This document shows, in pieces, positions 36,638 through 39,514 of a DNA stretch of 64,000 bases (positions are counted from its first letter, which is position 1; each line of letters starts with the position of its first letter). The DNA lies in contig CAJOIT010000003.1 of assembly GCA_905234755.1 (NCBI GenBank), positions 705,764 to 769,763 of the forward strand, given 5' to 3'. The position numbers and the translations under genes were made by a program. This stretch comes from an uncultured Bacteroidales bacterium (GTDB taxonomy: Bacteria; Bacteroidota; Bacteroidia; Bacteroidales; ML635J-15). The notes under the pieces were generated by a model that did no database searches, had not been told where the DNA came from, and saw only the letters and a list, made by a program, of their open reading frames with translations.

Positions 36638-37106
36638 CTATTTCAATTTACTAAATTTTACTGTGCCAGATAATGACTCTTTATGAAATGAATAGTCATA
36701 ATATTCTGTATATTTTATTACGCCAGAAAGAATCATTTCATTCCTGTTTAATCTATCAATGGAAAAATCTCCATTAAAGTTCATAATTTCCCAGTATCCA
36801 ACTACATTACTATCATATTTTTCACTTTCTAATAATATCGCATTGTTTTCAACCATATACTTTCCAATTAAACCACCATCACCGTCTAAATCTGTAGGAA
36901 TCAATTGAAATCTATAGTCTTGTCTAAAGCTCAACACATCGCCTTCGTTCATGTAAAGGCTACAATAAAAATCACTGTCAACGACTTCCCATGAACCTAC
37001 TATTTTTTTCTTCCTTTGAACATGCTGAAATAACGATTGCAAATCCACACACCAAACAGATAAATGCAAATCTTAATACTCTTTTTTTATAAAATATTAA
37101 AATCAT
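36638..37106 (-). pseudogene. Lipocalin-like lipoprotein gene interrupted by a frameshift at an A7 tract (T7 on + strand, 37003-37009)
   Basis: The ATG at 37106 (ATGA overlap with the upstream stop) encodes the lipoprotein signal MILIFYKKRVLRFAFICLVCGFAIVISAC SKEEK. After the A7 run the mature domain (IVGSWEVVDSD...) continues in the +1 frame (ORF 36638-37069). Removing one A fuses the two frames. Confidence 0.7.
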
Positions 37107-38200
37107 CTTTCCCATGCGATACCTATTTTTAATAAAACAGATGGTGCATACACTTTGTTTTTTATATCATACGAGGCTCCCGCACTTATACCGAGAAAGA
37201 ACAAGGGCCAAGAATCTACGATAAAGTTGTAACCAACATGAAAATGTAATCCATGACTATGTTCTACATTCTTCTGCCTTGCGTAAATTCTATAATCATG
37301 TCCATAAACTTTACCTACATCATAAACAGGCATATTAATTGTTCCATAGCCACAACCCATAAATAATCCTTCATATATATATAATTTTAAACCACCAGAA
37401 TAATGAAAAAAAAGTTTGCTTATTGTTTCATTAAAACTATAGTAATCTGAATAAAATTTAACATGTGTGAAATCCATTCCAAAATCCAAATATCCACCAA
37501 TACCAATAACACCACCGTATCGAAACTCTACGCCATCAGTCAAATTCCAAGGATAACCAGTTCCTGCAATGTTCCATGCAACATAATTGCGATCACCCCA
37601 GGAGAGATTATCTCTAATTTGTTTTTTTCGTTTTGCCTTTGCAGCCTGTTTTTCTTTGAGAGCTTGAAGCCTAGCCTCCTGCTCCTGCCTTTTTCTGTCT
37701 TCTTCAATCTTGTCTTTATACTCCTCCTTCATAATCTCACGCAATTCTTTTGCCTTACTGAAATCATAACAATCTCCCGCAAATTGCCTGAATTTGGGTT
37801 CAATATTTCCACTGATAGCCACTTGCAAGAGCTGATAATAATACCACTGCTCCCCATCACGTGACTTTTCAGAAAAATAGCAAACCTCTTTCATTGGTAT
37901 TTCATAATGGCTGGCAACAACGTTGAAATCTTGGTCGCTCGACTGAAACGCCTTGAAAATATCCATTGAATTGGATCCTACCCCGACTCGTGACTGCGCT
38001 TCCTTGACTGCCATTACAAACGCATCGGTACGAGCCTCTTTTTCTGTGTCGCCAACACCTTTGCTTACATAGTATTCGTAAGTATCATTCTCAGCCTGCG
38101 GCGGATTAAATGTCCAGTTCGGACGCATTGAAATATATGTTTGTGCAAATGCAACATTGCTAATCAATATGATTGCAAATAATTGAAATAACCTTTTCAT
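37103..38200 (-). CDS. Secreted protein: LPP20-like N-terminal domain + charged coiled coil + C-terminal small beta-barrel (outer-membrane type)
   Basis: 365 aa. Signal peptide MKRLFQLFAIILISNVAFAQ. The N-domain is paralogous to the product of 38204-38650. KE-rich helix (residues ~160-200). The C-terminal ~165 aa have alternating hydrophobic/aromatic strands ending in IGIAWER. Confidence 0.6.
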   Translation of the reverse strand: MKRLFQLFAIILISNVAFAQTYISMRPNWTFNPPQAENDTYEYYVSKGVGDTEKEARTDAFVMAVKEAQSRVGVGSNSMDIFKAFQSSDQDFNVVASHYEIPMKEVCYFSEKSRDGEQWYYYQLLQVAISGNIEPKFRQFAGDCYDFSKAKELREIMKEEYKDKIEEDRKRQEQEARLQALKEKQAAKAKRKKQIRDNLSWGDRNYVAWNIAGTGYPWNLTDGVEFRYGGVIGIGGYLDFGMDFTHVKFYSDYYSFNETISKLFFHYSGGLKLYIYEGLFMGCGYGTINMPVYDVGKVYGHDYRIYARQKNVEHSHGLHFHVGYNFIVDSWPLFFLGISAGASYDIKNKVYAPSVLLKIGIAWER

Positions 38201-38203
38201 AAA

Positions 38204-38650
38204 TCATTGACATTTAGTAAATTCTTCAAATTGTGGTTCTTTATTTCCAAATTTTGCGACCTGCCACAGAACATACAACCGAATCAAGTCTCCCATTGGA
38301 GTATGGTTCGCCTCCCAATAATCACACACTTTATTCATAGGTATACTTATAAAGTCTTGATTAACATTAACTCCTTCTGTTACTGAATTTTCAAGAGACT
38401 TGACATCATCTTGGAAATGCACCTCTACCCCCATTCTCCATTTTGCTTCCATCACGGCTTTTGCAAAAGCATTGGCGTATGCTTTGTCGTAAGAAACATC
38501 TTCAGCCATCGTAACACGATAGTAATAATTCTTGTCTGCTCCTGCACTCGGCAATTGTGTTACCCAATATGGAAGAACACGTCCAGTCTGTGCGTTTGCA
38601 GTAAGAATCAAGCAAAGGAATATAAAAAAAGAAAACAATCTTACTTTCAT
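38204..38650 (-). CDS. Small secreted protein, paralog of the N-terminal domain of the downstream gene
   Basis: The ORF is open to 38707. I prefer the ATG at 38650, which gives the signal MKVRLFSFFIFLCLILTANAQ. Pattern shared with 37103-38200: P.W..P.A...Y.Y.V...A..AF..AV.EA..R.GV....IPM..VC...Y.L.QVA..GN.EP.F..F..C. Confidence 0.6.
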   Translation of the reverse strand: MKVRLFSFFIFLCLILTANAQTGRVLPYWVTQLPSAGADKNYYYRVTMAEDVSYDKAYANAFAKAVMEAKWRMGVEVHFQDDVKSLENSVTEGVNVNQDFISIPMNKVCDYWEANHTPMGDLIRLYVLWQVAKFGNKEPQFEEFTKCQ

Positions 38651-38710
38651 AATATTAATCATTATGTTAGAGGGGAGCAAACAGACATAGCTCTGCTTGC
38701 TCCCCATAAA

Positions 38711-39514
38711 TTATTCTGATTTTTCCTCCAATGCTTTAAGTCTTTGTAAATCTGCCTGATTGGCTTCTTGCTTTTTACGGGATTGTTCATCCAACTCGGT
38801 TTGCAGCCTTTTCCTAAAAAGAGCCTTGTCAATATCCAATTCCCTTTCATCTTCAATTGCCTTGTCAATTTCATCAAGCACATCATTTGAGGCTACATAC
38901 AATGCTACATAACACCCATATCCTCCTTTCTTGTCCTGAATCCATTCACGACAAGCTGGTTTCATTAATTTGTTAATGGCTTTTTCACATACATTGATAC
39001 AAAGGCCTTCCAACTGAGCCTCTTGCAGACGAGTCAAACTTTTGGTGTCAGAATCTTTAGTATAATCTTCTATACCATTTTTGATTACACCCACCCAGCG
39101 GGTCATCAATTCTGCAATAGCATTACGGTTAGCATCCTTTAGTGCCAATTCTTGACGTTCCTTTCCTGTTGCCATTCCTTGTGCAGCCATCTGATTGGTC
39201 TTTTCTAATTCTAGAGCTTCTTTAGTACAAGGGATTAACAGTTTTTTTGCACCAGCTTCCAAAACTGCTTGATTATTAAGTTCCGACATTGCTATTTCCT
39301 GCTGTCTCTTAAGCAATTCCAACTCATTTTGGACTTTGATTAACTCTGCTTGCTCTTTCGCTTCTCGTATTTGTCTTTGTATATCAGATTCTTGTGGTTG
39401 TGTTGATGTTTGTGCTTGTGGTTGTTGTGCAACTATTGGTTGAGGCGACTTACAAGAAAATAGAACTGCAACTGCCATTAACATCATTACAGAAAACAAT
39501 ATTTTACTTTTCAT
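38711..39514 (-). CDS. Lipoprotein with coiled-coil flanks and central LPP20-like domain
   Basis: 267 aa. Lipobox VLFSC. Q/E-rich coiled coils at both ends. The central segment GMATGKERQELALKDANRNAIAELMTRWVGVIKNG resembles the LPP20 lipoprotein family. Confidence 0.55.
   Translation of the reverse strand: MKSKILFSVMMLMAVAVLFSCKSPQPIVAQQPQAQTSTQPQESDIQRQIREAKEQAELIKVQNELELLKRQQEIAMSELNNQAVLEAGAKKLLIPCTKEALELEKTNQMAAQGMATGKERQELALKDANRNAIAELMTRWVGVIKNGIEDYTKDSDTKSLTRLQEAQLEGLCINVCEKAINKLMKPACREWIQDKKGGYGCYVALYVASNDVLDEIDKAIEDERELDIDKALFRKRLQTELDEQSRKKQEANQADLQRLKALEEKSE

Follow-up and report, generated by a model that had tools for sequence, protein, structure and literature searches.

The locus described here raises the question of whether a run of genes without named relatives encodes a working assembly of the cell envelope and, if so, of what kind. 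The genes lie on the minus strand of a 64,000-nt stretch (hereafter the window, from whose first letter all positions are counted) of contig CAJOIT010000003.1 of an uncultured Bacteroidales bacterium (assembly GCA_905234755.1; contig positions 705,764 to 769,763), where a first-pass annotation made from sequence alone had described a four-gene envelope cassette at positions 36638-39514. We denote these genes, from upstream to downstream, as g1 through g4. Our analyses indicate that g1, g2, and g3 are conserved, that g4 is broken, and that relatives carry in its place the gene of a secreted protein of 494-496 amino acids (aa), denoted here as p496. We propose that the products of g1-g3 form an outer-membrane-anchored periplasmic scaffold that positions or regulates p496 in relatives and whose partner has been lost here, a reading that we consider plausible, with a probability that in our estimate falls somewhat short of even.

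The open reading frames (ORFs) of g1, g2, and g3 were each recovered in the ORF list at the positions and on the strand first assigned to them. g1 (38711-39514, minus strand) encodes a predicted outer-membrane lipoprotein of 267 aa with the lipobox LFS/C (the slash marks the cleavage site), an assignment that draws on homologs and a structural model in addition to the ORF call. g2 (38204-38650, minus strand; best start 38650) encodes a secreted, single-domain protein of 148 aa with a signal peptide ending in ANA/Q, and g3 (37103-38200, minus strand) encodes a protein of 365 aa with a signal peptide ending in AFA/Q. Gln directly after the signal cleavage site is a habit of Bacteroidetes, and the A-x-A/Q sites of g2 and g3 fit it. 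The signal peptides and the lipobox are kept across the family alignments, which supports the earlier claim that all of these products are exported envelope proteins. Homolog searches with g3 and g1 returned 65 and 20 proteins, respectively, all unnamed, with those that carry a label coming from metagenome-assembled genomes (MAGs) of Bacteroidales or Paludibacteraceae. Against the closest relative (locus L007; ~72-78% protein identity), dN/dS was 0.08 for g2 and 0.10 for g3, while dS of g1 was saturated. Given these homologs and dN/dS values, comparative sequence evidence identifies g1-g3 as real genes under purifying selection.

The four genes had been described as translationally coupled, with gaps or overlaps of 4 nt or less. 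This holds for g2 and g3, which are 3 nt apart, and for the ATGA in which the g3 stop overlaps the next ATG, but not for g1 and g2, which are separated by 60 nt. This spacer contains a hairpin of 14 bp (38672-38705, minus strand; GGGGAGCAAGCAGA..TCTGTTTGCTCCCC; fold energy -30 kcal/mol), and g1 and g2 are therefore not translationally coupled. A similarly strong hairpin occupies the same position in unrelated sequence in relatives L007, L011, L014, and L013, followed in L011 and L014 by a terminator-like U-run. Structure rather than sequence has been kept in these four relatives, and in two of them the hairpin looks like an intrinsic terminator. Placed behind g1, it would probably set g1 in excess over g2 and g3.

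Searches of Pfam and NCBIfam gave no match for g1-g4 at E<=1, and the anti-phage defence and phage models of PADLOC and PHROG gave none for g1-g3, g4, or p496; together these bear out the first impression that the cassette is no characterised system. Likewise, the PDB yielded no sequence match, whether queried with individual proteins or with profiles built for g1, the g2 domain, g3, g4, and p496. We therefore turn to predicted structures, beginning with g1.

The AlphaFold2 (AF2) model of g1 (mean pLDDT 80) comprises a disordered, Q/P-rich tether (approximately residues 22-43; residues 1-39 are disordered in the model), a helix (44-92), an alpha/beta core (97-222), and a second helix (230-266). 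The signal sequence ends in AVLFS/C, at least 90% of 19 family members retain the lipid-bearing Cys, and C21, C96, and C188 are conserved among the homologs (n = 20). In a Foldseek comparison of the model with the PDB, the five best matches were all Helicobacter pylori Tip-alpha, including 2wcq, 2wcr, 3guq, and 3gio (probability 0.98-1.0; E 6.5e-4 to 4.7e-3; target-normalised TM-score <=0.55 over ~143 aligned columns). Lpp20 itself (5OK8) was not among the top 50 matches, and PF02169 (LPP20) gave no match at E<=1 for g1, g2, g3, g4, or the proteins neighbouring the loci of relatives. Tip-alpha has been reported as a structural homologue of Lpp20, with an SHS2-like fold common to FlgP and FlgT (Vallese, 2017, as cited and discussed in PMC12222027). 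The 'LPP20-like core' ascribed to g1 thus stands at the level of fold, because Foldseek matches Tip-alpha and the literature equates the Tip-alpha fold with that of Lpp20, and does not stand as membership in the PF02169 family.

The g1 core has the same alpha/beta fold as Tip-alpha (HP0596) and Lpp20 (HP1456; LPP20-like/SHS2-like, IPR024952, PF02169), and, like Lpp20, g1 is a lipoprotein encoded beside small exported partners. Unlike them, it comes from another phylum, has an identity of 8-12%, which amounts to no sequence similarity, and adds a long tether and two helices of ~40-50 residues each. The role of Lpp20 in its own bacterium is likewise not known. Surface lipoproteins of Bacteroides and Capnocytophaga carry S(D/E)3, CS(D/E)2, or K-(D/E)2 beside the Cys (PMC6222051). 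The residues behind the lipid Cys of g1 are KSPQP.., with relatives alike, and include no acidic export signal of this kind; for this reason g1 is expected on the periplasmic side rather than displayed at the surface.

The N-terminal domain of g3 had been called a paralog of g2, and the alignment agrees: g2 and residues 3-141 of g3 share 34% identity over 143 aa (E=1e-15). Within g2, C109 and C147 are invariant. The AF2 model of g3 (mean pLDDT 88) shows a signal helix, a compact domain (41-128), a near-continuous helix (148-199), and antiparallel strands (206-364), with most of the N-domain and barrel residues 206-364 above 90. Mapped onto the minus strand, the N-terminal domain (residues 21-147; topology beta-alpha-alpha-alpha-beta-beta) corresponds to 37760-38140, the K/E-rich single helix of ~52 residues (148-199; DSSP H148-160 and H162-199) to 37604-37759, and the predicted C-terminal outer-membrane beta-barrel with the stop codon (residues ~200-365) to 37103-37603. 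We read the barrel in the model as eight strands, one of them kinked. Foldseek placed Ail, OmpX, and OmpW as the best PDB matches of g3 (probability 0.98-0.99; E ~1e-2), and NspA and the OprF N-domain were also matched. PF13505 (OMP_b-brl) gave no match to g3 of the window itself at E<=1; it matched six relatives in the barrel region, in P0130 above the cutoff (29.9 bits vs 28.7) and in P0037, P0043, P0046, P0048, and P0063 below it (E 3e-5 to 7e-3). The description of a K/E-rich helix followed by a small C-terminal outer-membrane barrel is therefore upheld by the model, by Foldseek, and by PF13505 in relatives.

Like OmpX, Ail, OmpW, NspA, and the N-domains of OprF and OmpA, the g3 C-domain is predicted to be a closed antiparallel barrel. 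Unlike OmpA, in which the barrel comes first and the periplasmic domain last, g3 would have its barrel as a C-terminal anchor and its periplasmic domain at the N-terminus on a long helix. Both termini of small outer-membrane barrels face the periplasm, and hence the helix and N-domain of g3 should reach ~7 nm down from the outer membrane.

A profile of the g2-type domain, which no Pfam model matches, retrieved 346 cluster representatives among 1.84 billion proteins. The domain occurs as a stand-alone unit of ~145 aa, fused to membrane helices, fused to a barrel, and at the start of proteins of ~820 aa; in P0180 it follows two CsgG/LpoB/FlgO-like domains (PF03783 E=7e-7, LpoB E=1e-6) and a K/E-rich helix. 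Conversely, the g3-type helix-plus-barrel anchor carries other N-domains in P0043, P0044, P0063, and P0046, and the N-domain of the first three looks CsgG/LpoB-like by sequence pattern, which Pfam does not confirm. The family relatives thus exchange the g2-type domain for CsgG/LpoB-like domains or combine the two. This points to a modular protein family in which the g3 barrel would serve as a reusable outer-membrane anchor for interchangeable periplasmic modules, and it is the main support for viewing g1-g3 as a periplasmic assembly tethered to the outer membrane.

The same domains could be taken instead to build a ring or cage under the outer membrane, with the Lpp20/SHS2-type domains of g1, g2, and g3 oligomerising as in FlgP, FlgT, CsgG, and PelC to serve not an enzyme but a secretion pore or some other structure of the envelope. 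In flagellar motors, rings associated with the outer membrane are built from SHS2/LPP20-like domains (PMC12222027), and the cassette resembles the FlgP/FlgT basal-disk and H-ring proteins in having LPP20/SHS2-type domains at the outer membrane that are encoded with an outer-membrane partner (there FlgO). The presence of three paralogous or related small domains in one operon, together with the CsgG/FlgO/LpoB-like fusion in P0180, would also suit a ring. However, the AF2 models of g1 and g3 show helices instead, and no secretion substrate, pore, or ATPase is conserved near the loci of relatives. To our knowledge, moreover, Bacteroidales have no flagella. We regard a ring-building accessory as unlikely.

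The scaffold reading draws on gene order in relatives. The order g1, g2, g3, p496 recurs in L004/L005, in L007-L009, and in L014 plus L012 (two contigs of one MAG), and the g1-g2-g3 part is present in L013 and in L011, which is cut by its contig end. In many cases a small HTH_3 gene precedes the cluster. L001 and L010 are rearranged, with a g1-like protein of 191 aa, a g2-type domain fused to membrane helices, an Lcl_C protein, g3, and p496. In L001 (5702-5950) there is also an 82-aa ORF in which a copy of the p496 N-terminus is joined to a fragment like the end of the g3 barrel, resembling a rearrangement scar.

In p496, a signal peptide and an N-terminal coiled coil precede a Pro-rich linker and a large domain. 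The C-terminus of this domain weakly resembles Transglut_core (PF01841) in two members (E 0.055 and 0.034; 14-15 bits vs a cutoff of 23), and C415, H442, and D469 are invariant in four sequences. A tblastn search across the 64-kb window found no trace of p496. The conserved unit in the neighbourhoods of relatives is thus g1-g2-g3 with p496, and not the four genes first proposed, of which g4 is an orphan.

The interval assigned to g4 (36638-37106, minus strand) spans 469 nt, a length not divisible by 3, and we read it as a frameshifted orphan lipoprotein pseudogene. Its ATG at 37106, which overlaps the g3 stop, opens a frame of 36 codons (MILIFYKKRVLRFAFICLVCGFAIVISACSKEEKNSRFMGSR; MILIFYKK..VISAC SKEEKNSRFMGSR) that ends at a stop at 36978; the mechanical ORF list starts this frame three codons earlier, at 37115, as a 45-aa ORF. 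The rest of the gene lies in another frame (36638-37069, 143 codons). The break falls in a run of seven A (37003-37009), and one A less would give an intact lipoprotein of 155 aa. An independent metagenome contig (L006), 100% identical over 5987 nt, has the same seven A, and a contig of another run (X2) spans the tract without differences; variants with six A, as phase variation would produce, were sought and the contigs show only seven, although contigs hide minority variants. The repaired protein had no homolog among 5.8 billion clustered proteins except the ORF of the window itself. An intact fourth gene is therefore not borne out, and its 'lipocalin-like' label is left without sequence support, the product having no Pfam, NCBIfam, or PDB match and a broken frame; a lipocalin-like fold of the repaired product is possible. 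Collectively, these comparisons indicate that the window holds a truncated cassette, in which g1-g2-g3 are followed by a broken lipoprotein gene, apparently specific to this lineage, where relatives carry p496.

Based on these parts, we suggest the following arrangement. g3 would insert in the outer membrane by its eight-stranded barrel, and its ~52-residue helix (~7 nm) would hold the alpha/beta domain in the periplasm, where g2, its unattached paralog, would probably form pairs or oligomers with it. g1 would be lipid-anchored in the inner leaflet of the outer membrane, with its Tip-alpha/Lpp20-type core between two long helices. The scaffold would thus have two arms that each include a long helix, g1 tethered through its lipid and g3 through its barrel, plus free g2, and its likely job would be to hold or control p496 at a fixed depth below the outer membrane, near the cell wall, much as LpoB and NlpI position cell-wall enzymes. 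In this genome, the p496 gene would have gone and the frameshifted lipoprotein gene would stand in its place. The formation of such a complex, its orientation, the activity of p496, and its link to the cell wall are what we infer from these parts. The likeness to LpoB, the CsgG N-domain, FlgO-type modules, and NlpI-type scaffolds lies in anchoring at the outer membrane and a long linker into the periplasm towards a partner. Unlike those systems, the cassette proteins of the window match none of these families, and the partner enzyme is a weak transglutaminase-like candidate that is missing here.

Several observations weigh against this arrangement. The transglutaminase assignment of p496 falls below the Pfam cutoff and has no PDB sequence match, and the retention of g1-g3 without p496 is unexplained if the enzyme is the point of the system. 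The N-domain of g2 and g3 alone has no match to a solved fold, the Foldseek result for the whole g3 model being dominated by the barrel, although the modelled topology of this domain, beta-alpha(-alpha-alpha)-beta-beta, would allow an SHS2 core. The g1 and g2 families align co-linearly but weakly in hhalign (E=0.0018, probability 15%), such that a common origin of the two is possible. Finally, strain single nucleotide polymorphisms (SNPs) in g2 and g3 comprise 4 non-synonymous and 3 synonymous changes, which could mean relaxed constraint, although the counts are tiny. The non-synonymous changes lie at 37210, 37293, and 37434 (W331R, Y303C, and F256S in g3) and at 38295 (M119R in g2).

These SNPs, the absence of p496, and the frameshift in g4 could also be explained if, after loss of the fourth gene, g1-g3 were decaying and idle in this genome. 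The toxin-antitoxin (TA) and ATPase fragments and small repeats around the locus are consistent with such decay, as is a C.A mismatch in the stem of the hairpin upstream of g1 (described below), where three other strains carry a change giving U-A. Nevertheless, g1, g2, and g3 each retain their full length, their export signals, and the conserved Cys residues, they are >99% identical across several ruminant metagenomes with no indel inside them among the differences listed, and their long-term dN/dS is ~0.1. A functionless remnant is, in our view, improbable.

Two of the four non-synonymous SNPs (F256S and Y303C) sit in predicted outer loops of the g3 barrel, whose closest folds, Ail and OmpX, are adhesins. 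This would suit a surface- or vesicle-facing module in which the outer loops, and possibly lipoproteins of the g4 type, mediate adhesion or are targets of phage or host immunity, and it would explain the patchy, strain-variable distribution of a locus that lies in a variable islet. Mature g4 would begin with CSKEEK, which resembles the K-(D/E)2 export signal (PMC6222051). Yet the bulk of g1-g3 is predicted to lie in the periplasm, g1 lacks an export signal, g4 is a broken gene found in the lineage of the window alone, and the SNP counts are too small for a test or for a choice between diversifying and relaxed selection. We consider a surface role quite unlikely, and the tethered periplasmic scaffold remains our preferred reading.

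The distribution of the cassette is narrow. A scan of 185,579 species, one genome each, with a 15-sequence alignment recovered 5 loci, all in sheep, deer, or other rumen MAGs, and near-identical DNA was found in bovine, goat, sheep, and other gut metagenomes. No relatives of g3 were found on IMG/VR viral contigs. From these matches, the g1-g3 family appears confined to ruminant-gut Bacteroidales and Paludibacteraceae. We also considered a claim that g1-g3 are expressed, which was rejected: the contigs in question ('organism A') are short and of low depth and cover g1-g3 without neighbours, the flanks of other strains differ, and the library type is uncertain.

The accessory status suggested by the first-pass annotation fits both this rarity (5 loci in 185,579 species genomes) and the strain-variable flanks, where other strains diverge just beyond 36435 and 40060, and 'accessory islet' is a fair description of the locus. 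Around the cassette are housekeeping genes for a YggS-type protein, a glycosyltransferase, and an ADP-forming acyl-CoA synthetase; also in the patch are a DUF4143/AAA_14 ATPase gene and, downstream of the cassette, a P-loop ATPase fragment (35902-36126). That repeats bracket the patch was confirmed by a 41-nt intergenic element (..AACAGGCTTGAAGGCTAAAAGGC) at three sites (35672-35712, 39976-40016, and 41437-41477), two copies of which flank the cassette and the toxin-antitoxin-like remnant. An 83-nt direct repeat (35743-35825 and 36398-36480; 72% identity), which carries a promoter-like box TAccTTTG on the minus strand, precedes the YggS-type gene and a 121-aa ORF, and an AT-rich direct repeat of 55 nt that contains an inverted repeat (40083-40137 and 40261-40315; 84% identity) lies upstream of the DUF4143/AAA_14 ATPase gene. 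At 36481-36588 this strain has a 108-nt stretch where other strains have a palindrome of 24 nt (ATAGCGAAGAAGAATCTCCGCTAT). The 108-nt stretch was also assembled as a separate contig of high depth, suggesting a small insertion element present in multiple copies.

The DNA upstream of g1 is conserved in a different manner. A comparison of upstream DNA revealed an element of 35 nt directly before g1 that is kept even where the proteins of the locus are only 25% identical. In the window (39520-39556, minus strand) it consists of AAAAACCGAUG followed by a hairpin with an invariant 12-nt loop, AUGGGAUAUAAC, and ends 14 nt before the g1 AUG. The element is also present in L004, L007, L011, L013, and L014 and in ~60 metagenome loci among L015-L134. 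A scan of metagenomes for the hairpin gave 120 stretches, from which selection by flanking CCGA, A-richness, and a downstream ATG left 64 distinct copies. These copies share a layout in which AAAACCGAYG is followed by a short stem whose two arms enclose the invariant loop, and then by an A-rich spacer and AUG. The three core stem pairs form in 61-63 of the 64 copies, with many double changes (e.g., GC 30, CG 29), and the covariation score is 0.594, compared with 0.172 +/- 0.022 for shuffled copies and <=0.128 with the partner strand slid. The distance from loop end to start codon is 14-15 nt in 47 copies, and the downstream ORF is signal-peptide-like at its start in 51. In many copies a TAnnTTTG box of the Bacteroidetes type lies 20-35 nt upstream, which places the element in a short 5' untranslated region (UTR).

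Five copies of the hairpin occur within 3 kb in L131. On viral contigs (IMG/VR; L135-L191, e.g., L136, L138, and L145) we identified 15 copies with full context, mostly preceding one recurring gene that begins ATGTGTATT (MC...), and the element thus extends beyond rumen Bacteroidales. Searching the literature for the loop sequence returned nothing relevant. In Rfam 15 there was no family for the hairpin or for the longer leader described below, the whole window having been screened at the gathering threshold and the leader at E<=1, with two chance-level matches only. The layout, in which a linear box precedes a hairpin whose loop is conserved, is reminiscent of the nut sites of phages (boxA/boxB), while the fixed distance to the start codon would point to translation; either role is possible. 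The AUG within the loop was considered as the start of a selected mini-ORF (MGYN...) and rejected: the frame ends in a UGA overlapping the main AUG in 23 of the 64 copies, is in frame with it in 15, and is mixed in the rest, and the lack of stop codons is near chance level for A-rich sequence.

Further upstream, between a promoter-like site and the hairpin, lies a structured leader RNA of ~180 nt (39638-39814, minus strand; GGAAAAAGC...GUGCCACGCUUUUUUU) that ends in a U-run. The promoter-like site (39947-39978, minus strand), read from the sequence, fits the Bacteroidetes-type consensus, with TTTG (39975-39978), 20 nt, and TAcaTTTG (39947-39954). The leader is present in at least 10 other loci (L038, L069, L076, L082, L095, L112, L114, L126, and L131 among them), 94-108 nt upstream of the hairpin loop; this distance is 134 nt in the window and L006. 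Across these loci (GGAAAAAGCG...GUGCCACGCUUUUUUU), RNAalifold predicts 59 pairs, 15 of them with compensatory changes, and a second subtype occurs in L035, L077, L098, and L127. The leader could be of the attenuator type or a separate small RNA.

Extending these observations, the cassette may be one of many Bacteroidota exported-protein operons under an RNA leader system that has not been described, composed of the ~180-nt RNA and the boxA/boxB-like AAAACCGAYG/AUGGGAUAUAAC hairpin element, whose position 14-15 nt before the start codon is fixed. An RNA-binding factor or the ribosome itself would recognise this hairpin element in a phylum without Shine-Dalgarno initiation; g1-g2-g3(-p496) would then be a new outer-membrane-anchored periplasmic machine controlled in this way. 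We offer this combined proposal as possible but doubtful.

Bacteroidales dominate the guts of ruminants and humans, and much of their envelope proteome has no family assignment. The cassette itself is niche-restricted, rare, truncated in this genome, and built from known fold types, with no named family. It nevertheless comprises three unnamed families, namely the g1 type, the g2-type domain, and the helix-plus-barrel anchor with its interchangeable periplasmic domains, and the putative partnership of g1-g3 with p496 would provide a concrete case of how Bacteroidota place periplasmic modules under the outer membrane. The RNA elements may matter more than the cassette: a hairpin that covaries and keeps a set spacing to the start codon, in front of dozens of genes for exported proteins and also of some phage genes, could be relevant to the way in which Bacteroidota start or control translation without Shine-Dalgarno pairing.

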